A stretch of DNA of 64,000 bases from an uncultured Rikenella sp. (GCA_964455705.1 CAYVYM010000006.1:25805-89804), one strand, 5' to 3'; positions 1 to 62,457 are shown, counted from the first letter of the stretch. A program made the numbers and translations. Notes: a model not told the origin generated them from the sequence alone.

Positions 1-1362
1 GGAGCCCGGCTCCATCACTCTTCCGGCCAGGGAGGCAATCAGCCTGCCGTCGGTATCATATATGCTCAGGGTCACATGTGATCTTTTTGTGATGGTGTAG
101 TGGATAACAGATTGTTCAGTGACAGGATTCGGAGTGATCTGCATGTTTCCGGCAGGTTCAGCCGTGGGCCCCTCCCCTGATGAGGTATAGCCTGCGATGA
201 AGGCTCTCTTCAGCCCTTCCCACAGTTCCGGTCTTCCGGCTTCGTAACTAAGGGCCCAGATGCCTATGCCGGCCAGGTTCATCTCCTTGGCGATATTGTT
301 TTTTATCCGGAGGCTGACGCTGTCATCGTACCACATCTGCCTCCACTGAGTTGTCTGATAGCTTATATACGGTACGCCTGTCACATCGTCAAAGATCCTG
401 GTATTGGAAGCGACCAGTCCAAGCGCGGTGTTGTAAATCCGTGATGTTCCCGTTCCCGTGGTGGCAGCCTTCCTCGCGCTGCTGGTGACAGGCCAGTCGT
501 ACCCGTACCACGGCACCCCGAGGAGCAGCTTGCCGGGAGGTACTCCGTCAGCAAAATAATCCTCATTGATGCTTTTCACAATGTTGTATGTCTCACCTGA
601 TACAGGAGCTACCGGCCCTGCGGTTGATGATCCGCTCCAATAGTAATTATACCCCATCATTATGATGTAATCGCAAATGCCGGCAAGGGCGCCGAGGTCC
701 CATCCGTCGGACCAGTTGACTGCCGGCGTGGCAAGCGATATCTCAGCATCAGGCATCACGGCCTTTATCCCTCTTACGGCCCTGCGGCAGAAAGAGACCA
801 TGTTTGCCTTCTGCGCTGCCGGAACAGACTCAAAGTCGAAGTTCACTCCGTCGCCGTTGCGCAGCTGCAGCTGGTTGATCACCGTGTTGATCAGGTTCCA
901 CTGCTTTACAGTATCGGTAAGTAGTTCAGTATTGCGTGCCGACCCGAAGTTGGTTACTGTCAGTGTCACTTTTACCCCTTTCACGTGAGCATAACTGATA
1001 ACAGAAGTGGTGTCCCATCCTCTCAGGGTTGTATATCCTCCTGTCGCGGTGTCAACCTCAAGGCTGAAGTATGCTATATGGGAGAGAGCGCTGTAATCAT
1101 AGAAGGTATATGCCATTGAACCTGCCCAGTATGGATGCCAGCCATATACCTTATGTGTCAGAGTGCCGGTACTCTTGCTCTTGAGCAGGGAGGGGAGGGC
1201 GGGCGAGAGGTCACCCCGAGTATGTAGATTACCGGTTATGCGTGAATAGAATTCACTCTCAGCCTGATGGATACCGACAAATGATGTGTCATATTCCTGG
1301 GCAGCTGCCACGAAAGATGCAACAGAAAACAGAATTGCGGTCAGTGTGGTCCTAATGCGCAT
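1..1362 (-). CDS. GH18 glycoside hydrolase (YaaH/chitinase-like) with a T9SS C-terminal sorting domain; the 3' end runs off the window
   Basis: Absent from the ORF track because no stop codon lies in the window. Manual minus-strand translation from the ATG at 1362 gives an open 454-codon frame. It has a signal peptide MRIRTTLTAILFSVASFVAAAQ, the GH18 catalytic block NGDGVNFDFE, and a tail ITPNPVTEQSVIHYTITKRSHVTLSIYDTDGRLIASL typical of type-A T9SS C-terminal domains. Confidence 0.8.
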   Translation of the reverse strand, partial: MRIRTTLTAILFSVASFVAAAQEYDTSFVGIHQAESEFYSRITGNLHTRGDLSPALPSLLKSKSTGTLTHKVYGWHPYWAGSMAYTFYDYSALSHIAYFSLEVDTATGGYTTLRGWDTTSVISYAHVKGVKVTLTVTNFGSARNTELLTDTVKQWNLINTVINQLQLRNGDGVNFDFESVPAAQKANMVSFCRRAVRGIKAVMPDAEISLATPAVNWSDGWDLGALAGICDYIIMMGYNYYWSGSSTAGPVAPVSGETYNIVKSINEDYFADGVPPGKLLLGVPWYGYDWPVTSSARKAATTGTGTSRIYNTALGLVASNTRIFDDVTGVPYISYQTTQWRQMWYDDSVSLRIKNNIAKEMNLAGIGIWALSYEAGRPELWEGLKRAFIAGYTSSGEGPTAEPAGNMQITPNPVTEQSVIHYTITKRSHVTLSIYDTDGRLIASLAGRVMEPGS

Positions 1363-1384
1363 GCATGCTGACTGAATGAATGTC

Positions 1385-2110
1385 TCAGCTGGTTTTAAAA
1401 TACTTCTTGTAAATCTCCATGTTACGCTCCAGGAGGCTGACGGAGACCTCGTAGGCCTTCCGGCTGTCCCTTTCCCTGAGAGCTTCAAGAAGCTCCAGCT
1501 GGTATTTCATTGTATATTCTTTTTCGCCTTCAATGTTTCCGTAGATCAGGTTCCTCATACGCGGCAGAAGGGAATAGACGGGTTCAAGGCTGATGATAAC
1601 AATTGGGTTGCCAGTGGCCTTTGAAAGATTCATGTGGAAGCGGTTGATGAGATCAACCTCAAGTTGGGTGTTGTCAGGATTGCATTTCTCCAGCTCGTGC
1701 TGGTTCTTCTGAAGGGTCCGGATGTCGTCATCGGTCCGGTTCCTCGCCGCAAGCCTTGCCACTTCAGGTTCAAAGAGCCGCCTCACCTCAATAATCTGGA
1801 GTATCAGGTCCGAGTTGAACCTCAGGTCATAAAAGAGATGCAGGGAGTTGATGGCATCCTCTATCTTCAGCTCGGAGATATACATACCGCTTCCCTTACG
1901 GATATCTATCAGTCCGCGTGCGCTCAGGCGACGCAGAGCCTCCCTGAGGGCCGTTCGGCTGACAGCGAACTGTCCGCATAGTTCCTTTTCCGTTGGCAGC
2001 TTGGAGCCCGGCAGGAGCTTCTTCTGTCTGATTGCTTCCTCAATCCTCCTCTCTATCTTCTGGCTGAGAGTGAGTCCTGAACCGATTTTGCTGAAGATAT
2101 CATTAGTCAT
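1385..2110 (-). CDS. GntR-family transcriptional regulator, FadR/FCD subfamily
   Basis: 241 aa. The N-terminal winged-helix block is PTEKELCGQFAVSRTALREALRRLSARGLIDIRKGSGMYI. An all-helical C-terminal effector half of about 150 aa follows. It is the last regulator-type gene of the murK-murQ transcription unit. Confidence 0.9.
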   Translation of the reverse strand: MTNDIFSKIGSGLTLSQKIERRIEEAIRQKKLLPGSKLPTEKELCGQFAVSRTALREALRRLSARGLIDIRKGSGMYISELKIEDAINSLHLFYDLRFNSDLILQIIEVRRLFEPEVARLAARNRTDDDIRTLQKNQHELEKCNPDNTQLEVDLINRFHMNLSKATGNPIVIISLEPVYSLLPRMRNLIYGNIEGEKEYTMKYQLELLEALRERDSRKAYEVSVSLLERNMEIYKKYFKTS

Positions 2111-2160: not shown

Positions 2161-3003
2161 TTATATATAGTTATCCCTGTAAAACTCCAGGGCTTTTTTA
2201 ACCGATCCCTGCTCGATGAGCAGAATACGGGCAGCCTCCCTTTGGATATTAAGCTCCTCCACAATCATCCTTGTGCCCCGTTCTATCAGCTTTTTATTGG
2301 TAAGCTGCATGTTAACCATTTTGTTGCCTTTGACCCTTCCGAGCTTTATCATGAGAGTGGTTGTGATCATATTGAGCACCAGCTTCTGGGCTGTGCCGGC
2401 CTTGAGCCTGGTACTTCCCGTGACAAACTCTGGTCCTACAACAACCACGACAGGAAATTCAGCGGCATCAACTATCGGGCCTGTCGGGTTGCATGTGATG
2501 CACCCTGTGAGGATGCCGTTATCCCTTGCCTTCTGTATGCCTCCTATGACATAGGGGGTAGTGCCGGAGGCTGCAATCCCGATTACTGAATCTTTTGTAT
2601 TGATATTGAATATTTCAAGTTCACTCCATGCTTTCAGCGGGTCATCTTCAGCAGACTCCACGGCCTTCCGGAGCGCTGTCTCTCCTCCTGCTATCAAACC
2701 TATGACCACCGTGTCAGGAACGCCAAAAGATGGAGGGACCTCAGATGCGTCGAGTACCCCAAGCCTGCCGCTGGTGCCTGCTCCCAGGTAAAAGAGCCTG
2801 CCACCCCTCTGCATCCGGCCCAGGATCTGATTTATCAGGATTCCTATTTGTGGGATGGCTTCCCTGACAGCAATATGTACCTTAGCATCTTCCTGATTTA
2901 TGTTAGTCAGCAGCTCGGTGACGGTCATCTTATCGAGATCCTCAAAATTAGAGGGTGATTCGGTTATGCTTAACGACTGCTTTATTAAAGCCTGTTTACT
3001 CAT
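2161..3003 (-). CDS. murQ: N-acetylmuramic acid 6-phosphate etherase
   Basis: 280-aa single-SIS protein. GGRLFYLGAGTSGRLGVLDASEVPPSFG and KAVESAEDD match the E. coli MurQ blocks LDASECPPTYG and AVEGAEDS. GSTRLKAGTAQKLVLNM is also present. Confidence 0.92.
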   Translation of the reverse strand: MSKQALIKQSLSITESPSNFEDLDKMTVTELLTNINQEDAKVHIAVREAIPQIGILINQILGRMQRGGRLFYLGAGTSGRLGVLDASEVPPSFGVPDTVVIGLIAGGETALRKAVESAEDDPLKAWSELEIFNINTKDSVIGIAASGTTPYVIGGIQKARDNGILTGCITCNPTGPIVDAAEFPVVVVVGPEFVTGSTRLKAGTAQKLVLNMITTTLMIKLGRVKGNKMVNMQLTNKKLIERGTRMIVEELNIQREAARILLIEQGSVKKALEFYRDNYI

Positions 3004-3007: not shown

Positions 3008-3856
3008 CTAAAAGTGTGAATTATGAATGTGAAACTTAACGAGGTTATCCATGGGAGAAGCGGTGAATATTCCGGGTTTCAGCCTGTGTTTTATCAGCAG
3101 CTCCTCAAGTAAGGGTCTGAAATGATATGCTATACTGCCCGTAAAATGAACCTCGTATTGTCTTGACTCCGGGTATGAGAGAACGTTACGCATTATGAAC
3201 TCGTCAAAACTCGAAACAATAATTGATCTTAGTTCGGGAATATGTAATTTATCATCAATGAACCGGGAAAACTGACCCAGGAACCGGTTGGGATAGGGCA
3301 TGTTGTAGACGTTTTCCAGGATTTCTGCAGGGGTAAATGGAAATGCCCTGAAAAAATCCACAATGATGTTTTCCGGCAATTGTTTCTTCAGAACACTAGA
3401 TACAATCTTTCTTCCTATCACTGCCCCGCCGCCTTCATCTCCCAGTATATAGCCCAGGGGCGGGACATTGGATACGATCTCCTTACCGTTGTAATAACAT
3501 GAGTTGGATCCTGTACCTATTATGCATGCTATCCCCGGATCATTCAAGCAGAGTGACCTTGCCGCACCGAGCAGGTCACTGCCGATAACAAGCTCCTTCG
3601 TGCCAAAGAATTCAGAAAGGGCTCGCCTCACAATATCTACCTTGGAGGCATGGCTCACTCCGGTTCCGTAAAAGAAGATGCGGCCCACACTTGCACCGCG
3701 CATCTCCGGTAACTCCCTGCGCAGGAGACGGATGATATCCTCACCTGAGATAAAAAATGGATTTAAACCTGAGGAGATGTATGACTTCCCGGGAACACCA
3801 TCTTTCACTACCATCCATTCGGTCTTTGTGGAACCGCTGTCAGCAATCAGCATCAT
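3008..3856 (-). CDS. murK: BadF/BadG/BcrA/BcrD-type sugar kinase (MurNAc/GlcNAc kinase, MurK-like)
   Basis: 282 aa. It has the ASKHA phosphate-1 motif MLIADSGSTKTEW and the GTGSNS block. It ends 4 bp upstream of murQ, the same arrangement as the Tannerella forsythia murK-murQ pair (recalled from memory). Confidence 0.65.
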   Translation of the reverse strand: MMLIADSGSTKTEWMVVKDGVPGKSYISSGLNPFFISGEDIIRLLRRELPEMRGASVGRIFFYGTGVSHASKVDIVRRALSEFFGTKELVIGSDLLGAARSLCLNDPGIACIIGTGSNSCYYNGKEIVSNVPPLGYILGDEGGGAVIGRKIVSSVLKKQLPENIIVDFFRAFPFTPAEILENVYNMPYPNRFLGQFSRFIDDKLHIPELRSIIVSSFDEFIMRNVLSYPESRQYEVHFTGSIAYHFRPLLEELLIKHRLKPGIFTASPMDNLVKFHIHNSHF

Positions 3857-3947: not shown

Positions 3948-4011
3948 ATATAAATAAAAATATTGAATAATCAGTTTTTTGTCAGATGTATGACATATTT
4001 AAAAAACTTTC

Positions 4012-4053: not shown

Positions 4054-7000
4054 ATGATGCGAGTTTCCCATCTCATTCATTACGTTGTATTTACGCTTAT
4101 CATGTTTGCCGTGCCGGCAAGCCTCTGCGGCCAGAAGGCCGGCAGGGCGGAGAGAGCTGCTGAGAACAGGCTTAAAGATTGGACAAGTACTGTTGAAGGG
4201 TGGCATTTCCCTGAAAAACTAAAGATTGATTCTCTCAGGGTTGACCAGGAGACAAAGGAGGTGAACATATGGTTCCCCGTCACCCTCTCATATAATCCCC
4301 TGAGAGAGGAGAACACCACGAGGCTTGTCACTTCGCTCAGGGATGAGCTCGGGAGAAAGTTTAGCGGTTACGATATCAATATATTTACCAACGGGTTTAG
4401 TATAAACCGGCTAATACCGAATTACTTCAGGTATATCACCCCGCATGATATGTCAAGGATACCGCCGGCCCCGGGTGAGAGGCCTGCTATTGTCAACCGT
4501 ATTGACAGGGTCAGCGCATCTGAAGGACTTGACGGAAGGTACATTGCCATGTGGCACAGCCATGGTTACTATTTTGACATGCCCCTCGACAGGTGGGAGT
4601 GGCAGCGTGCAAAACTCTTCGGCAGTGTTGAAGATCTTTCAGTGATGGCTTATGTGATTCCCTACCTGGCGCCTATGCTTGAAAACTCCGGTGCAACCCT
4701 GTTCCTGCCGCGAGAGAGAGATATCCAGTCAAATGAGGTAATTGTTGATAACGACCGTTCAACGGGAAGATCTGAATTTGTATTACATATTTCCACTCCA
4801 GCTGTGGAGGCCGGCAGGGGCTTTCTCCTGAGAGATACGCTTTTTACCGGAGACAATCCCTTCCTTATGGGCACCTCACTGCTGATCGGTGACGGCTTGG
4901 CAGAATATGTCCCTGAAATTCCCGAAAAGGGCTACTACGGTGTTACTGTCTCCTATCCACAACTGAAAGATAACGGCGGCAAGGTCCTGGTGAAGGTCAT
5001 GCACACCGGGGGGAGCACTGACTTCATTGTTGACCAGGCAATGGGAGGAGGCACATGGCTCTGGCTGGGATCTTTCAAGTTTGATGAAGGTATTAACCAC
5101 GCCAGGGGCTCGGTCACGATATCGGGTTATGATGGATCGGCGGCAGCTGTTGATGCCGTCCGTTTTGGCGGAGGCATGGGTAATGTTGCGCGGCGGCCTG
5201 CCGCAACGGTTATTTCCAACCAGTGGTCGCTCAACGCGGGCAGCCAGTCGCAGGAAGCCGGTCCTGTGTCAGACAGTATAACCTATAGCTGGAAGCTGAG
5301 CAGCAAACCCCGTTACCTCGAGGCTGCCCGCTACTGGCTACAGTATGCAGGCATGCCTGACACCCTTGTCTACACAATAAACAGAGGGAAGAACGATTAC
5401 AACGATGATTACATGTCACGTTCCGAATGGGTCAATTACCTTCTCCGCAAGCCGGACAGTGCAGGGCTCACAGGTATGGGCATTCCTTTGGACCTCTCCT
5501 TTGCATTCCATACCGATGCCGGAGTAACACCTGATGATTCCGTAATAGGCACCCTTGGCATTTATTCGACCCTTTCAAACCAGGGTCTGTTCCCCGACGG
5601 GACCAGCCGTCTTGCAAGTCGCGACCTTACTGATATTATCCAGACGCAGATCGTTGAGGATATCAGGGTGCTGTTTAACCCTGAGTGGACCCGTCGGGGG
5701 CTGTGGGACAGGTCATACTACGAAGCCCGCAAGCCTGACGTACCCGCCATGCTCCTTGAGCTATTGTCACATCAGAACCTTGCTGACCAGCGATACGGAT
5801 TTGACCCCCGTTTCAGGTTTCATGTCAGCCGGGCAGTCTACAAGGGCATCCTGAGGTACCTGGCAACTGCTTCAGGGACAGGTTATAGTGTTCATCCGCT
5901 TCCGGTATCTCACATGGCCCTGGCACACACCGGAGATATGAGCGTCAGGGTCAGTTGGGAGCCGGTAAATGACCCCCTGGAATCAACGGCGGTTCCATCC
6001 TCATACAGGGTATACATGCGCACCGGTGACGGAGGGTTTGACAATGGGACCCCTGTTAACGGTAACTATTTTGAAACAGAACTGCCATCTTATAACACCG
6101 CGTACAGTTTCCGGGTAACCGCCGTGAACGACGGTGGTGAGAGTTTCCCTTCCGAGACATTGTCAGTGGGACTGGTTCCGGAATCTGAAGGTACGGTGCT
6201 GATAGTCAATGGATTTGACCGCATATCGGGCCCTGCGTGGTTCGACCGCGGAGGAATGGCCGGCGTAGCCTGGTGGAATGACCGCGGAGTGGCCGATCAT
6301 TACAACTTCGTCAGCGTGGGCGACCAGTATGACTTTGACCGCAAGTCGCCGTGGACTGACGACGACAATGCCGGGTGGGGCTCATCATACTCTGACAGCG
6401 AGGGCCGGGTCATCGCAGGAAACACCTTTGACTTTCCATATATTCATGGCCTCTCTGTCATGGCTGCCGGAAAATCATTCGTTTCAGTGAGTGATGAGGT
6501 GTTCAACAGGGAAGATTTTGATCTGGATCCCTGGTGTGCTGTTGACCTGTTGTTTGGAGAAGAAAAGGCCACGGCATCAGCATATGATCCGGTGAAGAAG
6601 GATTTTCAGATATACACACCGGAGTTCCTGAGGAGTCTTGAGAGGCTGAAGGAGGCCTCTCTTCCGGTCTTTATGTCGGGGGCTTACCCGGGTACTGACC
6701 TGGTCATGCTGGCTGATACGGCGACTGCCGCAAGAGTGATGAAAACCCTGCATTTCAAACCCCGCACAGACCATGCCGTAAACACAGGCAGTCTCTATGC
6801 CACAGATATTGCCGGGCCGGACTTCACCGGCAGCTACAGCTTCAACACCGGATCAGTTGATGACATATATGCCGCTGAGGCTCCTGATGCCATCGAGCCG
6901 GCTGACAAGCTCTCAGCCACAGCATTCCGGTACACTGAGAACAATACTTCTGCCGCTGTCATGCACAGGGGTGAGGTGAGGAGCTTCGTCATGGGATTTC

Positions 7001-7080
7001 CCTTTGAAACAATAATGTCACAGGACGAGAGAGACGAGCTCATGAAACAGATACTGAACTTTTTACTGAAAATAAAATAG
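4054..7080 (+). CDS. Exported 1008-aa multidomain protein: Amidase_3-like (N-acetylmuramoyl-L-alanine amidase-like) core, Fn3 domain and an unassigned C-terminal domain
   Basis: Signal peptide MMRVSHLIHYVVFTLIMFAVPASLCGQ. The blocks WHSHGYYF, SFAFHTDAG and VPAMLLELLSHQNLADQRY resemble the Zn-ligand and C-terminal blocks of MurNAc-LAA amidases. The Fn3-like segment is SVRVSWEPV...YSFRVTAVNDGGESFPS. The last 300 aa or so have no motif I recognise. Confidence 0.55.
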   Translation: MMRVSHLIHYVVFTLIMFAVPASLCGQKAGRAERAAENRLKDWTSTVEGWHFPEKLKIDSLRVDQETKEVNIWFPVTLSYNPLREENTTRLVTSLRDELGRKFSGYDINIFTNGFSINRLIPNYFRYITPHDMSRIPPAPGERPAIVNRIDRVSASEGLDGRYIAMWHSHGYYFDMPLDRWEWQRAKLFGSVEDLSVMAYVIPYLAPMLENSGATLFLPRERDIQSNEVIVDNDRSTGRSEFVLHISTPAVEAGRGFLLRDTLFTGDNPFLMGTSLLIGDGLAEYVPEIPEKGYYGVTVSYPQLKDNGGKVLVKVMHTGGSTDFIVDQAMGGGTWLWLGSFKFDEGINHARGSVTISGYDGSAAAVDAVRFGGGMGNVARRPAATVISNQWSLNAGSQSQEAGPVSDSITYSWKLSSKPRYLEAARYWLQYAGMPDTLVYTINRGKNDYNDDYMSRSEWVNYLLRKPDSAGLTGMGIPLDLSFAFHTDAGVTPDDSVIGTLGIYSTLSNQGLFPDGTSRLASRDLTDIIQTQIVEDIRVLFNPEWTRRGLWDRSYYEARKPDVPAMLLELLSHQNLADQRYGFDPRFRFHVSRAVYKGILRYLATASGTGYSVHPLPVSHMALAHTGDMSVRVSWEPVNDPLESTAVPSSYRVYMRTGDGGFDNGTPVNGNYFETELPSYNTAYSFRVTAVNDGGESFPSETLSVGLVPESEGTVLIVNGFDRISGPAWFDRGGMAGVAWWNDRGVADHYNFVSVGDQYDFDRKSPWTDDDNAGWGSSYSDSEGRVIAGNTFDFPYIHGLSVMAAGKSFVSVSDEVFNREDFDLDPWCAVDLLFGEEKATASAYDPVKKDFQIYTPEFLRSLERLKEASLPVFMSGAYPGTDLVMLADTATAARVMKTLHFKPRTDHAVNTGSLYATDIAGPDFTGSYSFNTGSVDDIYAAEAPDAIEPADKLSATAFRYTENNTSAAVMHRGEVRSFVMGFPFETIMSQDERDELMKQILNFLLKIK

Positions 7081-7089
7081 CGGGATTCA

Positions 7090-8565: not shown

Positions 8566-9511
8566 CCAACTTATGAAGGACTTTTCCGCTAAAATAAGAG
8601 ATCTTTTTGAAGGCCAGTTCAGGGAGTGGAGCCTGGCCCGGGACAATTACAGGCAGCTTGACGAGGTGAGGGTCCGGAAGGTCCCATTCAACGGTTACGA
8701 TATTGCCGTCCAGTACAACCCCGGAAGGATAATCTCGTCTGCTGCAAAGGTTGATGCAAAGTCGATAGAGGCCAGGCCCTGCTTTCTTTGTGACAGAAAC
8801 CGGCCGCCGGAACAGAGGGGTATCGGATTCGCCGGGAGCTATATCATACTGATAAACCCGTTCCCCATATTCCGGAGACACCTGACAATCGTGTCCGGAT
8901 CTCATAGCCCCCAGCGCATATCAGGAAGCTTCCCTGAAATGCTGGCAATGGCAGAGGCGCTACCCGGGTATGTCATATTTTATAACGGACCCCAATGCGG
9001 GGCATCGGCTCCCGATCACCTGCACTTTCAGGCCGGCAACAAGGGGTTTCTTCCGTTGGAGCAGGATTTCAGCAATCCGCAGCTTTGCTCAAAAGAGACA
9101 GCCTCCGGTGGCATTGAACTATGGCGGTGGCATAATTATGGCCGGGGCATGATGACTCTTACCGGATCTGACAGCGAGGCAATTGTCAATACATTCAATA
9201 AATTCCATGAGAGATTTGCGCCTCTCCAGCCAGACAGACCGGAACCCATGCTGAATATAATTGCGTACCATACCGGAGATAAATGGTTAGTGCATATCAT
9301 ACCGCGTAAAATCCACAGACCGGCATGTTATTTTTCCGGGGGAGATGAAAAAATCCTGCTCAGTCCTGCTTCAGTTGACTTAGGTGGAGTGTTCATTACA
9401 CCTCGCGAAGAGGATTATGAAAAAATCACCGCCACTGACATTGCAGGAATAATAAAAGAGGTGTGCCTTGACGAGGAAGAGCTTAAAACATTAACTCTAA
9501 ACCTGATATGA
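8558..9511 (+). CDS. DUF4922-like protein of the GalT/HIT-branch nucleotidyl transferase/phosphorylase fold
   Basis: The HxHxQ motif SAPDHLHFQAG is at 9017-9031. RHLTIVSGSH and CFLCDRN blocks are present. The ATG at 8558 overlaps the GT2 stop (8563-8565); an alternative ATG lies at 8573. The stop overlaps the next start (ATGA at 9508-9511). Confidence 0.6.
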   Translation: MINQLMKDFSAKIRDLFEGQFREWSLARDNYRQLDEVRVRKVPFNGYDIAVQYNPGRIISSAAKVDAKSIEARPCFLCDRNRPPEQRGIGFAGSYIILINPFPIFRRHLTIVSGSHSPQRISGSFPEMLAMAEALPGYVIFYNGPQCGASAPDHLHFQAGNKGFLPLEQDFSNPQLCSKETASGGIELWRWHNYGRGMMTLTGSDSEAIVNTFNKFHERFAPLQPDRPEPMLNIIAYHTGDKWLVHIIPRKIHRPACYFSGGDEKILLSPASVDLGGVFITPREEDYEKITATDIAGIIKEVCLDEEELKTLTLNLI

Positions 9512-10851: not shown

Positions 10852-10852
10852 G

Positions 10853-13324: not shown

Positions 13325-13325
13325 A

Positions 13326-21560: not shown

Positions 21561-21632
21561 CTCCCGATAATTTATATAACTTTTGACATTAAGCACTCTG
21601 GCTCACTTTAGTTCACTCCGAACTTAAAAAAA

Positions 21633-36227: not shown

Positions 36228-36235
36228 GTATCTTG
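36228..36235 (+). promoter_or_regulatory. -7-like box TATCTTGG upstream of SusC pair 2
   Basis: It shares TGTATCTTG-N3-ATGG with the SusC pair 1 module at 26008-26024. It is preceded by the degenerate TTGTATTATGAA at 36211-36222. Confidence 0.4.
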
Positions 36236-36383
36236 GCCATGGAAAATGAATAGATGCGGAAGTGTGAGTTTGTTATTTTTCCTGGGATAAATCATGGAAA
36301 CTTGCTTAATTGATAAACATAATATGAGTAAGTCTGTTGTATTGTTTTACCTATTACTAAATACTAACCTAAAATCTTAATTT

Positions 36384-39300
36384 ATGCATGGTTTACAAAA
36401 ATTAACCGAATGGCGTAAGCGAATTATGCTTTCGGTGATCGCCATGGTTCTCGTTTCGGGAACCCTGGTAGCTCAGAACATACGAGTTACCGGCAGGGTG
36501 GTTGACAATACCGGCCTGCCTGCAATAGGTGTAACGGTAATAATCGAGGGTACCACCACCGGTGTGGCAACACTGAATGACGGTACCTATGCCATTGATG
36601 CCCCGGCCAATGCAGTTCTTCTCTTTTCTGCAATAGGTCTGGAAAACCAGAGAATCCCGATCAACAACAGAACAGTCATCAATGTTACTATGGCCGAATC
36701 GGCAATCGCTGTTGAGGAGGTGGTGGTTACTGCCCTGGGTATAGAGAAGGAGAAGAAGGCCCTTGGCTATTCTGTCCAGGATCTGAAGAGCGATGAGATC
36801 ATGAGGAACAAACAGACGAACGTGATCAACTCTCTGGCAGGTAAAGTTGCAGGGGTAAATATCACACAGTCAAGCGGATCAGCCGGGGCGGGTTCAACCA
36901 TTATCATCCGCGGAGGCAACTCGGCGAGTGAGTCGCGTGACAACCAGCCGTTGTTCGTGGTTGACGGCATCATTTACGACAACTCCACTGTGAACAGCGG
37001 CAACTCGGGAACAGACGGTGTAACCAAGGTGAATACATCATTTGGTAACCGTGTGATGGATATCAACCCTGATGATATCGAAAGCATGTCTATCCTTAAG
37101 GGTGCCGCAGCCTCTGCTCTTTACGGCTCGCGTGCAGCAGACGGAGTGGTGATCATTACTACAAAGAAAGGCAGTGCTGGTCCTGTAAAAGTAGATTTCA
37201 GCTCCAAATACTCATACTCCTGGACAGGTATCCTGCCTGAGCTGCAGGGTGTATACGGAAGAGGATTCTATAACCAGGCAGGCGTCTTCAGTGATTACAC
37301 CACCCAATCATGGGGCAATCCTATAACCGGAACTGTTTATGACAACGTTGGTGGTTTCTTCCAGGGTGGAAATGTATTCGACAACAGCCTGAGTATCTCC
37401 GGCGGAAGTCAGAGCAACAGCTTTTACCTGTCGGTCTCCAATTTTGATCAGACAGGCGTTGTCCCTCTGACCGGATATGATAAAACCACCTTCCGTTTCA
37501 ACGGCGAACAGAGATACGGGAAGCTGACTGTAGGTGCGAATGCCGCCTACTCCCTTTCAAATACCGTCAAGACTCTTACCTCAGCCGGATTATACAATGG
37601 CGGTGGTAACGGGACCATGACTGCCTTGTACGGGTGGTCGCGAGGTGATGATATAACCAGGTACCTGAACGACGACGGAACAAAATACAGGATGTTCGAA
37701 GGTCTGCAGGAACTTGCGAACGATGTTGAGAATCCATACTGGATTATCAACAAAAACGAACTGACAGACAAGGTGAACCGTTTTACCGGGGGCATTAATG
37801 CCTCTCTTGACCTGACCGACTGGTTCAATGTACTATACCGTGTCGGCTATGATAGCTATAACAGTGGTGCATACACTTACATTGCTCCCGGTGGAGCTGT
37901 CCTGGAGAGGTATCAGGATGGACGCCTCAGCAAGAGCAGTGTGGATTATCAATTCGTCACATCAAACCTGATGCTTAACTTTAATAAGAAGCTCGGTGAC
38001 ATTGATCTGAACCTGTTATTGGGACATTCTCTGGAAAGCACCAACAGAGTCCTGCGGACAATCTGGGGATATGGTTTTTCAACTGCAGGGACTGTCAGCT
38101 TTGCAAACATCGTCAATGAACAGAAGTTTTTTACGGAAAGGAATGTTACAAAACGTCTGTTAGGTGCGTTCGGTGAATTCCGTGCCTCCTACAAAAGCAT
38201 TGCTTATCTGACTGTGACAGGAAGAAATGACTGGTCGTCAACTCTTCCGATAGAGAACAGATCATACTTTTATTCGTCAGTATCGGGTAGTCTTGTATTC
38301 ACGGAGCTGCTCCCAAAGAATGACATTCTTTCATTCGGGAAGCTCCGCGCATCATGGGCGCAGGTTGGTAAGGATGCCGATGCCTATGCCACAAACACTT
38401 ATCTCTGGGCACCTCAGATTGTCAGCGCCCAGTTTGTTGGCACTGGTAACAGTTGGACAGGTGGCAGTCCGAACCTTGTTCCTGAAATCCAGACATCTAC
38501 CGAGTTAGGTACAGAACTGCAATTCCTTCAGGGAAGGCTTGGGCTGGATTTTACATACTATAGCAGTATAACCAAAAACCAGCTGGCAAGTCCGCGCCTT
38601 GCCCAGTCAACCGGTTTTATCTTTCTGACATTGAACAGCGGTTCGGTGCACAACAAGGGCATGGAGCTTTCAATTAATGCAACTCCCGTCAGGAACCAGA
38701 ACTTTACCTGGGATGTGACACTGAATCTTTCAGGGAACCGCGGCACACTGGGGGATTTCCTTCCTGGTGTCGGATTGTTTTATGTTACCGATGTTCAGAT
38801 TGGTGGGGTAAAAGCTGCTTCCGTTCCTAACGGTGGATACTTCCTTGGCCTTACCGGTGATTACTGGACCAGGGAGAAGGATGAGGATGGAAATGAAATC
38901 CCTGATGGAAGGTATATCGTTGATGAAGCCACAGGCTTATATGCACCAACTAATGTAGAAACAAACGTTATCGGGAATCGTGAACCTGATTTCATCGGAG
39001 GTCTGAACAACAACTTAAGTTATAAGAACCTCAACTTCTCTTTCCTGTTCGATATCAGAAAAGGAGGTGACATTTACAACGGAACTGAATATTATCTGAC
39101 AGTGAATGGATTGAGTACAAGGACACTCGACCGTGAATCGGTTACCGTTTCAGGTGTTTCAAAAGCAACCGGAGAACCCCTCACATATACCTATGAGGCC
39201 GGACAAACATATGTAGTTAACGGAGCTTCACGTTCCGGTGAATATATGATACAGCAATATTGGGCGAATAATTATGCCAGAAACGCATACAATTTCATGA

Positions 39301-39560
39301 CCAGCACCAACTGGCTGAGACTCCGCTCAATGGCGCTTTCGTATGACTTTACTGAACTGCTTGGAAACGGGACTTTCATTAAAGGCTTATCAGCATCCGT
39401 AGCAGGGTATAACCTGTTCTTGTGGACCAACTATAAGGGCATGGATCCGGAGGTCAGTGTATCCGGATCAGGAACGGGAGGATCTGGCTCGATGGGTATC
39501 GACTATGCCGGTGTGCCTGCAACCAGGAGTATCACATTTGGCCTCAATGCAACATTTTAA
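36384..39560 (+). CDS. susC: SusC/RagA-family TonB-dependent outer-membrane transporter (pair 2)
   Basis: 1058 aa. The CarboxypepD_reg-like block is IRVTGRVVDNTGLPAIGVTVIIEGTTTGVATLNDGTYAI. The plug block is DIESMSILKGAAASALYGSRAADGVVIITTKKG. It ends in ...FGLNATF. The start could instead be the internal Met at 36426. Confidence 0.9.
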   Translation: MHGLQKLTEWRKRIMLSVIAMVLVSGTLVAQNIRVTGRVVDNTGLPAIGVTVIIEGTTTGVATLNDGTYAIDAPANAVLLFSAIGLENQRIPINNRTVINVTMAESAIAVEEVVVTALGIEKEKKALGYSVQDLKSDEIMRNKQTNVINSLAGKVAGVNITQSSGSAGAGSTIIIRGGNSASESRDNQPLFVVDGIIYDNSTVNSGNSGTDGVTKVNTSFGNRVMDINPDDIESMSILKGAAASALYGSRAADGVVIITTKKGSAGPVKVDFSSKYSYSWTGILPELQGVYGRGFYNQAGVFSDYTTQSWGNPITGTVYDNVGGFFQGGNVFDNSLSISGGSQSNSFYLSVSNFDQTGVVPLTGYDKTTFRFNGEQRYGKLTVGANAAYSLSNTVKTLTSAGLYNGGGNGTMTALYGWSRGDDITRYLNDDGTKYRMFEGLQELANDVENPYWIINKNELTDKVNRFTGGINASLDLTDWFNVLYRVGYDSYNSGAYTYIAPGGAVLERYQDGRLSKSSVDYQFVTSNLMLNFNKKLGDIDLNLLLGHSLESTNRVLRTIWGYGFSTAGTVSFANIVNEQKFFTERNVTKRLLGAFGEFRASYKSIAYLTVTGRNDWSSTLPIENRSYFYSSVSGSLVFTELLPKNDILSFGKLRASWAQVGKDADAYATNTYLWAPQIVSAQFVGTGNSWTGGSPNLVPEIQTSTELGTELQFLQGRLGLDFTYYSSITKNQLASPRLAQSTGFIFLTLNSGSVHNKGMELSINATPVRNQNFTWDVTLNLSGNRGTLGDFLPGVGLFYVTDVQIGGVKAASVPNGGYFLGLTGDYWTREKDEDGNEIPDGRYIVDEATGLYAPTNVETNVIGNREPDFIGGLNNNLSYKNLNFSFLFDIRKGGDIYNGTEYYLTVNGLSTRTLDRESVTVSGVSKATGEPLTYTYEAGQTYVVNGASRSGEYMIQQYWANNYARNAYNFMTSTNWLRLRSMALSYDFTELLGNGTFIKGLSASVAGYNLFLWTNYKGMDPEVSVSGSGTGGSGSMGIDYAGVPATRSITFGLNATF

Positions 39561-39578: not shown

Positions 39579-41510
39579 ATGACTATGAAAAAGATATTCT
39601 ATATCACTTTAACTCTGGCCTTTCTTTTAGGTTCGTCCTCTTGTGAGAAGTGGCTGGATGTCAACGTTGACCCTGATAATCCAAATGACCTGAGTGCAAC
39701 CCCGGAGATCAGGCTTCCATGGATACAGCACTATTATATGTATGCATGGGGTACAGCAAATATGCGTACCAGTACAATTGCAGGGATACTGACCCAGAGT
39801 TCGGCTACTGCTGCAAACGGCAGACTCGCCGCATGGAATCCGCTTCAGAGCAGCTGCACAACAATATATCAGAACTGGTTCCTTGGCGCAGCAGTTAACC
39901 TGAATCCTCTGATTGCCAGGGCTGAAGAGGCAGGTGCCTATCACTATTTGGGGGCTGCACACTGTATTAAGGCTATGGGCTTTATGATGATGCTTGATCT
40001 TCATGGTGAGATGCCTTACACAGAAGCAATGACAGGGAAGTACAATCCTGCTTATGATCAGGGAGATGCCATTTACAACGGATGTCTGGCAGACCTCGAT
40101 AAAGCCATTGAGTTCTTCGGACAAGCTCAGGAACCAGGCGCTCCGGCCCTTGCGGAAGGAGATACCTGGAATGGAGGCGATGTTAACAAATGGATCAAAT
40201 TATGCTACGGCCTCAAGGCGCGCTATCTGCTACAGGTATCTAAGAAATCAATTTATGATCCTGCAGCTGTACTGGCAGCTCTTCAAAATGCACCCCAGTC
40301 AAATGCTGACAATACTAGTATGAAGCATTACAATGTTGAAGGTGACGCCCTTAACTTTACTGTCGCGGACCCGTATCAGACAAACTCCACATGGAATTCA
40401 GCTGCATACGGAACAGGCCAGCGGGCAACCAGATGGTACGCCGATCTGTTAACCAACAGCTTCACAGGCGGTTCAGGTGTTATAGATCCGCGCATGCCCA
40501 AACTTCTGCCTGCCACGATGACGAATACTGTCCTTAACTCATCAGGAGATATAATAAGCCATGAGTGGTTAAGGGATGTTGGTGTCGATATGATGAATTC
40601 TGATATCCGTCTTAACGGTGGACCTCTTGGTGCCTCATACAACACTGCCGAGAGGCTTTACACATATACTATTGCCGATGATACAGAGAGAGCAAATTTC
40701 ATTGCATCAATCCCTCATTCCTATACAATAACTGGCACGAGTGTTACTGTGACATATCCGAGGGGTTCTTTCTATATTAATAATGCAAACCACAAGAGGG
40801 CCGGAGATACCATTTATGTCAACATGAGGGCCAACAGTATGTCAACCAGCGGGGTATCAGTTACAGATATGTACTACTATCCTACAGCAGGCCAGCCTGC
40901 AGTGGCAGGAACCGGGACCTTCTATGCCAGACCTGACTCTGATTCTGATATCCTGACCTATTCCGAAATGTGCTTTATCAAGGCTGAGGTCTACCTCAGG
41001 CAGGGTAATGCCCCGGAAGCATTTACTGCATACAGGGCAGGTATCCAGGCACACTTCGACCGCATGCAGATCAAACTCGGTGAATGGCAGTCAGCCGGCA
41101 CCATCAATCCGGATCAGATGCCAATGGATGAGGCAGATATTGCCGCCTATATGGCCAGTGCCGCTGTAGTGCAGAATGCTGCCTCGTTAACAATGGCTGA
41201 TATTATGCAGCAGAAAACCATATCCATGGGCCTTAATTTGCAAAACTGGAATGATATGCGCCGTTTCAACTACAGCGCAGGTAATATTGGCAGCTTTGGT
41301 GTTGTATACAGAGACTACAAGAGACCTTTCGAGTTTACTGCAACAAATATCATGACCGGAACGAGTCCGGCTGACCCGACATACTGGTTCCGTCGTTTCA
41401 GTCAGAGTCCGCACGAGAGCAACTATAACAATGAGCAGCTTATGCTGTCCAACCCGTTAGCTATGGAGGATGCTATCTGGAGTGATCCCGTATGGTGGGA
41501 TAAAGAATAG
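39579..41510 (+). CDS. susD: SusD/RagB-family nutrient-binding lipoprotein (pair 2)
   Basis: Lipoprotein signal MTMKKIFYITLTLAFLLGSSSC. It lies immediately downstream of SusC pair 2. The C-terminal SusD-like segment is IMQQKTISMGLNLQNWNDMRRFNY. Confidence 0.85.
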   Translation: MTMKKIFYITLTLAFLLGSSSCEKWLDVNVDPDNPNDLSATPEIRLPWIQHYYMYAWGTANMRTSTIAGILTQSSATAANGRLAAWNPLQSSCTTIYQNWFLGAAVNLNPLIARAEEAGAYHYLGAAHCIKAMGFMMMLDLHGEMPYTEAMTGKYNPAYDQGDAIYNGCLADLDKAIEFFGQAQEPGAPALAEGDTWNGGDVNKWIKLCYGLKARYLLQVSKKSIYDPAAVLAALQNAPQSNADNTSMKHYNVEGDALNFTVADPYQTNSTWNSAAYGTGQRATRWYADLLTNSFTGGSGVIDPRMPKLLPATMTNTVLNSSGDIISHEWLRDVGVDMMNSDIRLNGGPLGASYNTAERLYTYTIADDTERANFIASIPHSYTITGTSVTVTYPRGSFYINNANHKRAGDTIYVNMRANSMSTSGVSVTDMYYYPTAGQPAVAGTGTFYARPDSDSDILTYSEMCFIKAEVYLRQGNAPEAFTAYRAGIQAHFDRMQIKLGEWQSAGTINPDQMPMDEADIAAYMASAAVVQNAASLTMADIMQQKTISMGLNLQNWNDMRRFNYSAGNIGSFGVVYRDYKRPFEFTATNIMTGTSPADPTYWFRRFSQSPHESNYNNEQLMLSNPLAMEDAIWSDPVWWDKE

Positions 41511-41569: not shown

Positions 41570-41625
41570 ACTCGTTGCGGAAATTGATCAGCAATGATAA
41601 TGCGGTCAGAAACTGGTGGTGATAT

Positions 41626-43680
41626 TTACAGTTTTTTGAATCCGCTTCTCTCAATGAGGGCATCAATTGAGGGTTCACGGCCGCGGAAGTCGCGGTAGAG
41701 CACATCTGGTTCACGGCTGCCTCCCTTTTCAAGTATGTTGCGTCTGAATGAGTCTGCCGTCTCCCGGTCAAAGATGCCTCTCTCCCTGAAGAGGCTATAG
41801 GCATCGGCATCGAGCACCTCGGCCCACTTGTAGCCGTAATATCCTGCTGCATAGCCTCCTGAGAAGAGATGGGCAAATGAGACACTCATGCACGTACCGT
41901 CGGCAGGAGGCAGGATGTCAGCCGGGGCCATCGCCGTGCGCTCAAATGCCACAATATCACCCGTGAATGGCTCTGAAAGCGTGTGCCATGCCATGTCAAG
42001 CAGACCAAAGCTGAGCTGCCTCATGCATGAATAACCCTCGTTGTAAGTGAGTGATTCCTTAAGTCTGACAAGTATTTCGTCCGGAATTTTCTCCCCTGTC
42101 CGGTAATGCGAGGCCCATGAGTCGAGCCACTCTTTCTCCCACGCCCAGTTCTCCATTATCTGCGACGGCAGTTCAACGAAGTCGCGCTTCACATTGGTGC
42201 CGGAGAGGCTTTCATATGAGCAATCTGACAGCATTCCGTGCAACGCATGTCCGAACTCATGCAGGAAGGTGTTCATCTCGCTGTGTGAGAGGAGTGACGG
42301 CCTCTCCGGCGTCTCGCGGGTGAAATTCATCACCAGTGAGACCACCGGGATGACCCTGGTGCCATTCTCCCTGCTCTGCTCACGGAAGCCTGTCATCCAT
42401 GCACCGCCACCCTTACCCTTGCGCGGGTGGAAATCAAGCATCAGGATGGCAATAATGCCCTTATCCCCGTCATGGACCTCATAAGCCGTGACTTCAGGAT
42501 TATAAACAGGTATCGCGCTGTTCCCAGTGAATGTGAGTCCGTAAAGCTTTGTCGCCAGTCCCAGTACTGCCTCTTTTACCTTTTCAAGTGGCATGTATGG
42601 GCGCAGCGCTTCGTCATCAATATTGTACCGTTCAAGTCTCAGCTTCTCTGACCAGTAAGCCCAGTCCCAGCGCTCCACTCTGCCCTGGTGTCCCAGTTTG
42701 CGGGCATACTCTTCAATATCGTCATGGTCACGTCTGGCGGCTGGTGCTGAAGCCTTAAGGAGGTTATCAAGAAAGCTGTTCACCTCTGAGGGTTTGGAGG
42801 CCATCCGGTCCTCGAGCGCGTATGATGCATAATTGTCGAACCCAAGCAGTTGCGCCAGCTGCAGACGCAGATCGGCGATACGTGTCACAAGAGCCCTGTT
42901 ATCATGTTCATTCCCCCTGAATGATCGGATAGCGTATGCCCTGAAGATCTTCTCCCTGAGATCACGGCGACCGGAGTATTGCATGAATGGGACATAGCTC
43001 GGTGCGTGCAGGGTAAAGAGCCAACCCTCCATGCTCTTCTCACGGGCCAGTACTGCAGCTGCCTGACGTACCCCTTCTGGAAGTCCTGCCATCTCCTCTT
43101 CGGTAGTGAGGTGAAGGGTAAAATCGTTGGTCTCCGCCAGCACATTCTCCTCGAACTGAAGTGACAGGGTCGCCAATTCCACAGTGATTGTCCTGAATTT
43201 ATCCTTATCCTCCCCGGAGAGAGCTGCCCCGCCTCTGACAAATCCCTTGTACTTGCGATCGAGCAGAATATACTGTTCAGGGTCAAGGTTCAGGCTTTCT
43301 CTTTTTTCATAGACATCCCTGACTTTTCTGAAGAGTTCAGGATTGAGGCTGATGTCATTGGCGAAGCTGGTCAGGAGGGGAGAGATCTCCCTGGCAGCAG
43401 CCTGCAACTCCGGAGTGGTGTCGGAGCTGTTGAGGTTAAAGAGAATGGGAGTAATACGGTTCAGCAGCCCCCCTGCCTGTTCGAGCGTTTCGATGCAGTT
43501 CTCAAATCCGGGTTCTTCAGTGCATGACACGATCTCATCTATCTGCTTGCGGGCGACCTCAATGGCGTGCTCAACCGCCGGCTTGAAATGTTCCGGCCTG
43601 ATCAGGTCAAAGGGGGGAACGATGAAAGGGGTGTTCCACTCCTGCAGGAGGGGGTTGGGTTGAGGGTGGTCTGAGGTCAT
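41626..43680 (-). CDS. dcp: M3-family peptidyl-dipeptidase (Dcp/OpdA-like), cytoplasmic
   Basis: 684 aa. The zinc motif is LHEFGHALHG. The N-terminus NPLLQEWNTPFIVPPFDLIRPEHFKPA is typical of Dcp. There is no signal peptide. Confidence 0.85.
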   Translation of the reverse strand: MTSDHPQPNPLLQEWNTPFIVPPFDLIRPEHFKPAVEHAIEVARKQIDEIVSCTEEPGFENCIETLEQAGGLLNRITPILFNLNSSDTTPELQAAAREISPLLTSFANDISLNPELFRKVRDVYEKRESLNLDPEQYILLDRKYKGFVRGGAALSGEDKDKFRTITVELATLSLQFEENVLAETNDFTLHLTTEEEMAGLPEGVRQAAAVLAREKSMEGWLFTLHAPSYVPFMQYSGRRDLREKIFRAYAIRSFRGNEHDNRALVTRIADLRLQLAQLLGFDNYASYALEDRMASKPSEVNSFLDNLLKASAPAARRDHDDIEEYARKLGHQGRVERWDWAYWSEKLRLERYNIDDEALRPYMPLEKVKEAVLGLATKLYGLTFTGNSAIPVYNPEVTAYEVHDGDKGIIAILMLDFHPRKGKGGGAWMTGFREQSRENGTRVIPVVSLVMNFTRETPERPSLLSHSEMNTFLHEFGHALHGMLSDCSYESLSGTNVKRDFVELPSQIMENWAWEKEWLDSWASHYRTGEKIPDEILVRLKESLTYNEGYSCMRQLSFGLLDMAWHTLSEPFTGDIVAFERTAMAPADILPPADGTCMSVSFAHLFSGGYAAGYYGYKWAEVLDADAYSLFRERGIFDRETADSFRRNILEKGGSREPDVLYRDFRGREPSIDALIERSGFKKL

Positions 43681-62455: not shown

Positions 62456-62457
62456 AT

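Follow-up and report, generated by a model that had tools for sequence, protein, structure and literature searches.

Peptidoglycan is among the largest carbon and nitrogen pools of bacterial necromass, and in communities living with a host it also gives rise to fragments that act on the immune system. For Bacteroidota, its salvage at the inner membrane and in the cytoplasm is understood from work on Tannerella forsythia, whose operon Tanf_08345-08385 encodes, in order, a 'xanthan lyase', two glycosyltransferases (gtf), lytB, ampG, namZ1 and murTKQ (PMC5388701; bioRxiv 10.1101/2021.12.02.470905); this operon is co-transcribed, regulated by GppX and needed for growth on muropeptides (PMC5388701; bioRxiv 10.1101/2021.12.02.470905; PMC7670621). 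TfAmpG imports N-acetylglucosaminyl-N-acetylmuramic acid (GlcNAc-MurNAc) and its anhydro form, GlcNAc-anhMurNAc, and TfNamZ1 releases GlcNAc-MurNAc from peptide-free glycan (bioRxiv 10.1101/2021.12.02.470905). Neither SusC, SusD nor TonB is mentioned in the preprint on NamZ1 and NamZ2 (bioRxiv 10.1101/2021.12.02.470905), and in the TfAmpG paper the term 'outer membrane' occurs in the reference list only; no outer-membrane step is named in the T. forsythia papers checked. The present analysis concerns 64,000 nucleotides from an uncultured Rikenella sp. (GCA_964455705.1 CAYVYM010000006.1:25805-89804; this whole stretch is called the window, and positions are counted from its first letter), of which positions 1-43680 hold two SusC/SusD pairs among genes of peptidoglycan breakdown. 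Judged from its sequence, this span is probably a regulon in the manner of a polysaccharide utilization locus (PUL), directed at peptidoglycan or muropeptides released by other bacteria, and it offers two candidate SusC/D families together with a candidate regulator and operator for the outer-membrane step. The first-pass annotation of the window had also read the span as a peptidoglycan-directed, PUL-style locus, and this is supported by the nearest solved structures, the gene order of T. forsythia, synteny and a common operator motif.

Compared by annotated function, the likeness to the T. forsythia operon lies in the order of positions 4054-14993, where the gene of a 1008-aa protein, the counterpart of the 'xanthan lyase' gene at the head of the T. 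forsythia operon, is followed by genes for a glycosyltransferase, a DUF4922 protein (in the place of the second 'glycosyltransferase'), a SpoIID-like protein and AmpG. A NamZ1-type enzyme of glycoside hydrolase (GH) family 171, MurK and MurQ are encoded close by, and the predicted flow, from peptide-free glycan to GlcNAc-MurNAc, AmpG and then MurK and MurQ, is the same. The span differs in having no MurT, in the insertion of a gene fusing GH9 to a carbohydrate esterase family 4 (CE4) domain before ampG, and in a divergent MurK-MurQ pair that is joined to GntR and GH18 genes; its candidate regulator is of the GntR/FCD type, whereas that of T. forsythia is the hybrid two-component protein GppX. 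Two SusC/D pairs, YkfC, an epimerase, an LmbE-NagB fusion, an oxidase, Dcp and a GH3-beta-lactamase fusion are extras of the window. The case for orthology is made from annotated functions, supplemented by the tests of NamZ and MurK described below; within these terms, the parallel with T. forsythia drawn in the first-pass annotation is borne out by gene order and annotated functions, NamZ1 type, MurK pocket and MurQ.

A second parallel had been drawn with Bacillus subtilis, and it holds in part. As in the murQ-murR-murP-amiE-nagZ-namZ cluster, NagZ (YbbD), NamZ and MurQ occur together and a beta-lactamase fold accompanies NagZ, as AmiE does there; as in ykfABCD, genes of the YkfC and YkfB types are adjacent (21675-24053). 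The layout of the window is in contrast Gram-negative, with SusC/D and AmpG instead of the MurP phosphotransferase system, a GntR/FCD regulator and not the RpiR-type MurR, and NagZ fused to the AmiE-like domain; MurP, MurR, YkfA and YkfD are not present in the span. With canonical PULs the span shares adjacent SusC and SusD genes, surface or secreted and periplasmic carbohydrate-active enzymes, a linked candidate regulator and an inner-membrane permease. It departs from them in that its predicted substrate is a glycopeptide polymer, with peptidases and an epimerase as integral parts, in that its predicted regulator is a cytoplasmic GntR/FCD repressor and not a hybrid two-component system or an extracytoplasmic function (ECF) sigma/anti-sigma pair, and in that SusD1 is far more conserved than usual.

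A cluster of about 27 kb in a metagenome-assembled genome (MAG) of Urechidicola (Flavobacteriaceae) contains two susCD, murQ, nagB, ampG, an L-Ala-D/L-Glu epimerase, an amidase and GH3/GH18/GH171 genes (PMC10199937, Fig. 5); its authors regarded the genes as mostly concerned with murein metabolism and left the substrate open, naming host mucus or the environment (PMC10199937). That cluster rests on annotation only, without synteny, regulator or operator analysis, and it is likened to the window by gene content. No experimentally characterised peptidoglycan SusC/D PUL was found in the full-text literature searched, which omits most subscription journals, and only automated 'peptidoglycan' PUL labels and the Urechidicola figure turned up. 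The claim of the first-pass annotation that no such PUL has been characterised stands within that literature, and the idea itself had already been figured for Urechidicola (PMC10199937). The gene set is not new, and the span is a variant of the PUL and of the Tannerella-type salvage operon; the novelty lies in the conserved SusD1/SusC1 family with its tandem partner, and in the predicted GntR operator by which both are tied to NamZ, YkfC and MurK.

A conserved SusC/SusD pair linked to peptidoglycan genes

Two hallmarks of a PUL are present in the span, namely adjacent SusC and SusD genes, here as two pairs, and carbohydrate-active enzymes beside them, here GH18, GH9, GH171, GH3 and two CE4 (Table 1). 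SusD1 has more than 3300 homologues at E <= 1e-20, the top 120 of which are all at least 73% identical; the mean column identity in an alignment of 12 sequences is 83%, and relatives occur in at least 585 species in a scan with one genome per species. The 80 loci fetched are those of the best-scoring SusD1 relatives and are not phylogenetically independent; SusD1 is 63-89% and SusC1 60-89% identical across them. They come from Bacteroidales, Marinilabiliales (Prolixibacteraceae, Draconibacterium, Mariniphaga, Gaoshiqia, Tangfeifania) and Cytophagales (Cyclobacteriaceae, Flammeovirgaceae, Roseivirgaceae, Chryseosolibacter, Flexithrix), the nearest relatives being Bacteroidales MAGs, several of them labelled 'uncultured Rikenella sp.', with 87% SusD1 identity.

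The neighbourhoods were surveyed by tblastn with all window proteins, and the counts use the 56 related loci that span 15 kb or more. SusC1 accompanies SusD1 in all fetched loci, and SusC2/SusD2 follow directly after SusD1 in many relatives. A peptidoglycan-linked gene lies no more than 10 kb from SusD1 in 41 of the 56 loci, and a strictly specific one (NamZ, YkfC, epimerase, MurQ, AmpG, SpoIID or an Amidase_3 protein of the type IX secretion system, T9SS) within the same distance in 30. Absence of synteny in related genomes had been named beforehand as a result that would speak against a peptidoglycan PUL; linkage was found in the 41 loci just mentioned. The commonest immediate neighbours of SusC1/D1 are YkfC and the epimerase, while NamZ, GH3-beta-lactamase, AmpG and GH9-CE4 (the last in L032, L068 and L080) recur beside the pair in several lineages. 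Lineages differ in having NamZ on either side, GH3-beta-lactamase upstream or downstream, and MurK-MurQ-GntR sometimes immediately adjacent, and this varying gene order implies that the linkage has been kept through rearrangements. The link of SusC/D to peptidoglycan genes holds across orders of Bacteroidota, and this conservation, together with the common operator motif described below, is what ties the transporters to these genes.

In one Prolixibacteraceae locus (L081:1318-6251), a T9SS Amidase_3 gene and a gene for a T9SS DUF4623/DUF4957 protein stand immediately upstream of SusC1, and a GntR orthologue follows the pair. Downstream of this GntR gene lie an NTP_transferase and a GHMP-kinase, which may form a sugar-1-phosphate salvage pair.

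Alternatively, the two pairs might import peptides in the manner of RagAB, either stem peptides or oligopeptides in general, with the glycan entering the periplasm otherwise and the span being a peptide-plus-amino-sugar neighbourhood. In 15 of the 56 loci both pairs lie among housekeeping genes, flanked only by aminopeptidase P (M24), a stand-alone beta-lactamase-fold protein and an S9 peptidase, so that the cargo of at least one pair could be peptide and not glycan; Dcp is moreover syntenic with the pairs, with 75-77% identity in relatives, and the commonest neighbours, YkfC and the epimerase, are themselves peptide enzymes. SusD1 lacks a solved glycan-binding relative and, as no solved relative of any kind was found at E <= 1e-5, its ligand is not inferable by homology. 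Peptide import as the whole explanation is nevertheless unlikely, because NamZ and SusC1 promoters have the operator in common, NamZ, GH3-beta-lactamase, AmpG and GH9-CE4 recur beside SusC1/D1, the T9SS amidase directly upstream in one lineage would yield naked glycan as well as free peptide, and SusD2 shows weak similarity to glycan-binding SusD homologues.

In the peptidase-type lineages (L018, L024, L035, L038, L041, L045), tandem SusC1/D1-SusC2/D2 is followed by the aminopeptidase P, the beta-lactamase-fold protein and the S9 peptidase, for example at L045:17473-21682, with EF-Ts, S2, Dus and LpxK around, which makes these loci a version oriented towards peptides; the peptidase families were determined with Pfam on L045 and extended to the other loci by matching open reading frame (ORF) sizes. 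The stand-alone beta-lactamase-fold protein is distant from the fused domain of the window, with 26% identity over 100 aa.

A predicted operator common to transporter and enzyme genes

GntR/FCD orthologues, 61-82% identical, adjoin SusC1/SusD1 in at least 12 related loci, and the window protein is a probable repressor of the locus. Aligned upstream regions across loci contain a conserved palindrome about 100-110 nt before the SusC1 start codon; its shape fits operators of the GntR/FadR type. Allowing at most one mismatch, TTGTAWTACAA occurs six times in the window vs 0.79 expected, a count reached in none of 100 shuffles, and all three perfect sites are at promoters within the locus (Table 1). 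Over the related loci, the motif lies no more than 300 nt upstream of SusC1 in 24 of 69, against about 1.6 expected from its overall density, and of 98 occurrences 25 precede SusC1, 21 NamZ, 8 YkfC and 5 SusC2; in the closest relatives, a TTGTCATACA site precedes SusC2. The half-divergent variant TGTATGACA of the MurK/amidase-like region also occurs upstream of SusC1 in Marinilabiliales loci. From this distribution we infer one predicted regulon, comprising SusC1/D1 and the MurNAc- and peptide-specific enzymes, in which the GntR/FCD repressor, acting on TTGTAWTACAA, would control the SusC1, NamZ/YkfC, GKRP-like and MurK/amidase-like promoters.

Eleven Cytophagales loci (L016, L040, L050, L052, L064, L067, L071-L073, L075, L078) do not contain the GntR palindrome and have another conserved element, CAGTGATATTnnnAAATCACCnTTTTCAGTGAT, at a distance of about 60-130 nt upstream of SusC1, an indication that the transporter is controlled by a different regulator in these loci. 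In the window, a one-mismatch copy of the palindrome, TTGTATTACTA, is found at 49879-49889, 5 nt upstream of the transketolase start codon, and may be due to chance or reflect a regulon link to pentose-phosphate genes.

Predicted enzymes for MurNAc and the glycan strand

NamZ matches the solved structures 4K05 with 524 bits and 4JJA with 183 bits, which are NamZ1 and NamZ2 of Bacteroides fragilis, respectively, and BfNamZ1 is grouped with TfNamZ1 (bioRxiv 10.1101/2021.12.02.470905). In MurK, room for the lactyl ether is made by S133-P134-L135, by T94 in place of Asn and by the DxGxT motif (PMC10465942); by inspection, the window kinase has P132-P133-L134, S93-D94 and D6-S-G-S-T10, that is, the MurK pocket residues at a constant offset of -1, and it also matches the MurNAc-recognition residues N32/F34/F35, T115-G116, N118 and D140 (compared with PMC10465942).

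For the 778-aa NagB-like protein, the first-pass annotation had proposed a fusion with LmbE (PRK02122-like). Pfam gives no LmbE match in the C-terminal half, and the support comes from three other sources: the AlphaFold model (mean pLDDT 92), whose N-terminal part has the NagB fold (TM-scores, normalised to the targets, of 0.8-0.9) and whose C-terminal domain matches LmbE/PIG-L proteins, namely LnmX and the diacetylchitobiose deacetylases of Pyrococcus; the PIG-L family PF02585, found in 9 of 32 homologues; and a conserved HxDD-type motif (H..P..DD, with H409, P412, D415 and D416), nearly invariant, being conserved in at least 90% of the 32 sequences. It is credible that this fusion substitutes for the missing NagA. 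The FAD/Fe-S oxidase gene stands next to the NagB-LmbE gene in L083 as well.

The glycosyltransferase family 2 (GT2) and DUF4922 genes (7090-9511) hold a conserved operon position, T. forsythia included, although a purely catabolic scheme has no step for them; a possible role is a branch for nucleotide-sugar salvage or phosphorolysis. The 601-aa protein encoded before SusC1 has the two-SIS-plus-lid layout of the eukaryotic glucokinase regulatory protein (GKRP), with an N-terminal half resembling MurQ; among the fetched related loci, its gene is confined to the nearest relatives and L037, and in the window it has a perfect operator site of its own.

The predicted stem-peptide branch and the inserted cassette

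The YkfC-like lipoprotein is closest to 3NPF (174 bits) and 3PVQ (170 bits), which are Bacteroides proteins, and matches 3H41, YkfC of Bacillus cereus, with 88 bits; its true start is probably M17, at 21723. The epimerase matches 3IJI/3IJL/3IJQ, the dipeptide epimerase of Bacteroides thetaiotaomicron, with 522 bits, and its alignment to the solved Bacteroides homologue begins at query residue 43. The residues at its N-terminus form a Tat-like KRDFIK motif followed by a lipobox. While the dipeptide epimerases of Escherichia coli and Bacillus are cytoplasmic, an exported epimerase would put stem-peptide epimerisation in the periplasm.

Between the two SusC/D pairs lies a cassette (31347-36383, with genes at about 31.5-36.3 kb) that encodes the lipoprotein CE4 and the GH3-beta-lactamase fusion. 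Among solved structures, that of B. subtilis NagZ/YbbD (3BMX, 226 bits) is closest to the GH3 domain, and the fused beta-lactamase domain (128.8 bits) is AmiE-like by architecture. The cassette has about 40% GC vs 44-55% in the rest of the span, is flanked by the conserved SusD1 terminator hairpin on one side and the SusC2 promoter on the other, and is missing in the closest relatives L002 and L003, where SusC2 directly follows SusD1; it is probably a recent acquisition. Homologues of the GH3-beta-lactamase, 39-60% identical, flank SusC1/D1 in many other lineages, which suggests that the same function has been recruited repeatedly.

Predicted compartments and proposed route

The substrates, activities and regulatory interactions proposed here are inferred from the family assignments, synteny, signal sequences and operator sites given above and in Table 1. 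Visual reading of the N-termini suggests the following locations. GH18 is predicted to be secreted or at the surface (signal peptide plus T9SS tail), possibly likewise the 1008-aa protein; SusD1, SusD2, the 451-aa CE4 and the YkfC-like protein are predicted lipoproteins; NamZ, GH3-beta-lactamase and GH9-CE4 are predicted to be periplasmic, and MurK, MurQ, GT2, DUF4922, the oxidase, NagB-LmbE, the GKRP-like protein and Dcp cytoplasmic. These export signals fit the compartments of the following route. Outside the cell, wall debris would be attacked by the T9SS-secreted GH18 and, in relatives, by T9SS Amidase_3; SusD1 and SusD2 would capture the fragments, and SusC1 and SusC2 carry them across the outer membrane. 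In the periplasm, the amidase-like giant, the AmiE-like beta-lactamase-fold domain, or both, would remove stem peptides, the fused NagZ-type GH3 would take off terminal GlcNAc, the NamZ1-type GH171 would free GlcNAc-MurNAc from peptide-free strands, and the CE4, GH9 and SpoIID-like proteins may trim modified strands; the YkfC-like lipoprotein would cleave gamma-D-Glu-diamino acid bonds and the exported epimerase turn L-Ala-D-Glu into L-Ala-L-Glu. AmpG would then bring the disaccharide across the inner membrane into the cytoplasm, where MurK and MurQ would give GlcNAc-6-phosphate and D-lactate, the LmbE-NagB fusion would convert GlcNAc-6-phosphate into fructose-6-phosphate in place of NagA and NagB, the FAD/Fe-S oxidase would oxidise D-lactate, and Dcp would complete peptide breakdown.

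Several of these steps (AmpG, NagZ, MurQ, LmbE/NagB and the SpoIID-like protein) are classical functions of cell-wall recycling, and GT2 and DUF4922 could feed a salvage branch, which raises the alternative that the span serves to recycle turnover products of the cell's own wall, in the way of E. coli or Pseudomonas, and that the SusC/D pairs recapture leaked fragments or are unrelated neighbours. This is quite improbable: own turnover products are already periplasmic, so that TonB-dependent import would be needless, GH18 in the window and amidases in relatives carry T9SS signals, SusC1 and NamZ have the operator in common, the end steps (NagB, D-lactate-type oxidase, Dcp) are catabolic and not anabolic, and the homologous T. 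forsythia operon serves exogenous muropeptides.

Other observations weigh against a locus directed at exogenous peptidoglycan. Besides the 15 peptidase-type loci and the phylogenetic dependence among the 80 loci, these are the following. The window contains no strict operator before SusC2. Among the ORFs of 1-43680, neither AnmK nor MurT is found, as the first-pass annotation had stated, and no cytoplasmic enzyme that cleaves GlcNAc-MurNAc was identified in that span; its description of murein breakdown as 'near-complete' is for these reasons an overstatement. The scheme also gives no role to GT2, DUF4922 or the GKRP-like protein.

The 1008-aa protein, formerly called an 'Amidase_3-like giant', is another such point. 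The protein is real, and its Amidase_3 match (22-25 bits vs a cutoff of 27) is confined to the C-terminal half of the profile; the AlphaFold model has a pLDDT of 63, with low confidence in the Amidase_3 region, a Foldseek search with this model gave only fn3 domains and a weak C-terminal alpha/beta GATase-like match, and hhalign against a bona fide T9SS Amidase_3 returned a non-significant probability of 2.7%. The amidase fold is thus not confirmed by model, Foldseek or hhalign. About half of the 120 best homologues carry precomputed PF01520, with one named as an amidase, and H168/H170, H486 and E569 are invariant in the family alignment, in columns that we take to be compatible with the Zn site of Amidase_3; from its sequence, the protein is a probable split Amidase_3 domain with Golvesin_C inserted.

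As to the glycan, GH18, GH9 and CE4 suit chitin or chitosan equally well, no assignment of GH9 or GH18 to peptidoglycan is possible from sequence, and the closest solved structures of GH9 are endoglucanases, which are uninformative on peptidoglycan. The first-pass 'T9SS-secreted GH18' holds as regards GH18 and signal peptide, whereas its T9SS C-terminal sorting domain (TIGR04183) scores 19.9 bits against a cutoff of 23, a sub-threshold match that is explained by the gene running off the window edge; none of the fetched related loci has GH18 within 10 kb of SusD1. A substrate such as chitin, chitosan or another GlcNAc-rich glycan, with the MurNAc genes as passengers, would make use of GH18, both CE4, GH9 (a family that includes exo-glucosaminidases), the GH3 hexosaminidase and NagB, and in the chitin locus of Flavobacterium johnsoniae, too, a T9SS GH18 and two SusC/D pairs supply a pathway for amino sugars. 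That locus, however, has no counterpart to the MurNAc- and stem-peptide-specific enzymes of the window, and the span has no GH20. Chitin use does not involve NamZ, MurQ, the MurK pocket, YkfC or the L-Ala-D/L-Glu epimerase, yet they are most consistently linked to SusC1/D1, GH20 and GH19 are absent from the locus, and GH18 is not syntenic with SusD1, which together make a GlcNAc-rich glycan a very improbable substrate.

With peptidoglycan or muropeptides as the probable substrate, a further proposal, tentative and with somewhat less than an even chance of being right, is that both SusC/D pairs are phylum-wide peptidoglycan importers, one for glycan or disaccharide and the other for stem peptides or muropeptides, under a GntR/FCD protein sensing a metabolite of the MurNAc pathway. 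If so, they would supply the outer-membrane step still missing from the picture of how Bacteroidota scavenge peptidoglycan, and would be a major route of necromass turnover in sediments, digesters and guts. If the reading of the span itself is true, peptidoglycan would join the substrates of PULs, and the very conserved SusD1 would be a marker for necromass recycling in metagenomes. The outer-membrane step is testable in cultured carriers, such as Draconibacterium, Mariniphaga, Gaoshiqia, Flexithrix and Chryseosolibacter.

Gene content and boundaries of the span

The ORF list and a six-frame reading at the window start give 23 genes in 1-43680, all of them real ORFs (Table 1). At the left edge, a four-gene unit on the minus strand runs from the MurK-like kinase through MurQ and GntR/FCD to GH18, which continues beyond the window; diverging from it is an eight-gene block on the plus strand, from the 1008-aa protein to the NagB-like protein, followed by NamZ on the minus strand, the YkfC-like protein, the epimerase, the double-SIS protein, SusC1/SusD1, CE4, GH3-beta-lactamase, SusC2/SusD2 and a convergent M3 peptidase. 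The true start of AmpG is probably the ATG near 13326. Domain searches on these ORFs agree with nearly all the domain calls of the first-pass annotation, namely MurQ, the MurK-like kinase, the AmpG-family permease, NamZ1-type GH171, NagZ-like GH3, SpoIID, GH9, two CE4, the YkfC-like endopeptidase, the dipeptide epimerase, Dcp, the FAD/Fe-S oxidase and the two SusC/SusD pairs; overlooked had been GntR/FCD, GT2, DUF4922 and the 601-aa GKRP-like MurQ paralogue.

Table 1. Genes and operator-like sites of positions 1-43680
Feature	Position	Strand	Evidence and remarks
GH18 glycosidase, partial	1..1362	-	PF00704 108.9 bits; signal peptide; runs off window start; 22 nt downstream of GntR gene
GntR/FCD transcription regulator	1385..2110	-	GntR 76 bits, FCD 66 bits
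MurQ, MurNAc-6-phosphate etherase	2161..3003	-	NF003915 358.6 bits (cutoff 168); SIS domains
MurK-like sugar kinase (BadF/BadG/ROK-like fold)	3008..3856	-	Weak PF01869; MurNAc-recognition residues matched
Operator-like half-divergent variant TGTATGACA	3987..3995		MurK/amidase-like divergent region
1008-aa exported protein, Golvesin_C + fn3 + C-terminal alpha/beta domain	4054..7080	+	Golvesin_C 55 bits; Amidase_3 22-25 bits
GT2 glycosyltransferase, 247-aa N-terminal part unassigned	7090..8565	+	'gtf' at equal position in T. forsythia
DUF4922, GalT/Ap4A-phosphorylase-like nucleotidyl-transferase fold	8555..9511	+	208 bits; weak GalT; C-terminal part without family
SpoIID/LytB-like, lytic transglycosylase or amidase enhancer	9508..10851	+	PF08486 78.6 bits; T. 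forsythia counterpart called LytB
GH9 (with CelD_N) + CE4 deacetylase fusion, exported	10853..13324	+	Domain search
AmpG-family MFS permease	13281..14993	+	TIGR00901 150 bits, below cutoff; MFS_1; operon position of TfAmpG
FAD/4Fe-4S D-2-hydroxyacid oxidase (YdiJ/GlcD-GlpC-like), candidate D-lactate dehydrogenase	15014..17944	+	Domain searches
NagB-like deaminase + LmbE/PIG-L-like deacetylase fusion, 778 aa	17971..20307	+	Profiles, homologues, motif, model
NamZ (GH171) exo-beta-N-acetylmuramidase, NamZ1 type, exported	20304..21596	-	NamZ_N 277.6 bits, NamZ_C 133.6 bits
Perfect palindrome TTGTATTACAA	21633..21643		NamZ/YkfC divergent region
YkfC-like gamma-D-Glu-diamino-acid endopeptidase lipoprotein, SH3b-SH3b-NlpC/P60	21675..22892	+	3NPF, 3PVQ, 3H41; lipobox
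One-mismatch palindrome copy	21707-21717		NamZ/YkfC divergent region
L-Ala-D/L-Glu-type dipeptide epimerase, enolase superfamily	22899..24053	+	3IJI; 1JPM also matched
Perfect palindrome TTGTAATACAA	24048..24058		Upstream of GKRP-like gene
Double-SIS GKRP-like MurQ paralogue, 601 aa	24182..25987	+	Domain searches; closest relatives
Perfect palindrome TTGTAATACAA	25982..25992		About 100 nt upstream of SusC1
SusC1, TonB-dependent transporter	26092..29508	+	CarbopepD_reg_2, Plug, TonB barrel
SusD1 lipoprotein	29520..31346	+	SusD_RagB or SusD-like_2 profile; lipobox
CE4 deacetylase lipoprotein, 451 aa, in inserted cassette	31605..32960	+	Domain search; lipobox
GH3 (Bacillus NagZ/YbbD-like) + beta-lactamase-fold fusion, exported, in inserted cassette	33120..36074	+	Domain search; 3BMX
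SusC2, TonB-dependent transporter	36384..39560	+	CarbopepD_reg_2, Plug
SusD2 lipoprotein, SusD-like_2 type	39579..41510	+	Domain search; lipobox
M3 dipeptidyl carboxypeptidase (Dcp-like), without signal peptide	41626..43680	-	430.8 bits

To the right of 43.7 kb follow DUF3127, peptidyl-prolyl isomerase (PPIase) and FKBP genes, assigned by synteny with L083, and beyond FKBP a transketolase, a 6-phosphogluconate dehydrogenase and then a separate pectin/hexuronate PUL; this shift in gene content makes the right boundary set in the first-pass annotation sound. The hexuronate/pectin cluster occupies 55694-63894 on the minus strand, with MFS, UxaC, UxaE, GH28 and SusD genes, and reaches the window end. 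No RNA families from Rfam were found within the window. In the intergenic region upstream of Dcp (43711-43929), a 31-nt element (GCTACAATACYATAACC...) that has an internal hairpin is present twice in direct orientation and once as an inverted partial copy, together with a tandem 14-mer resembling ATTTGCGA.

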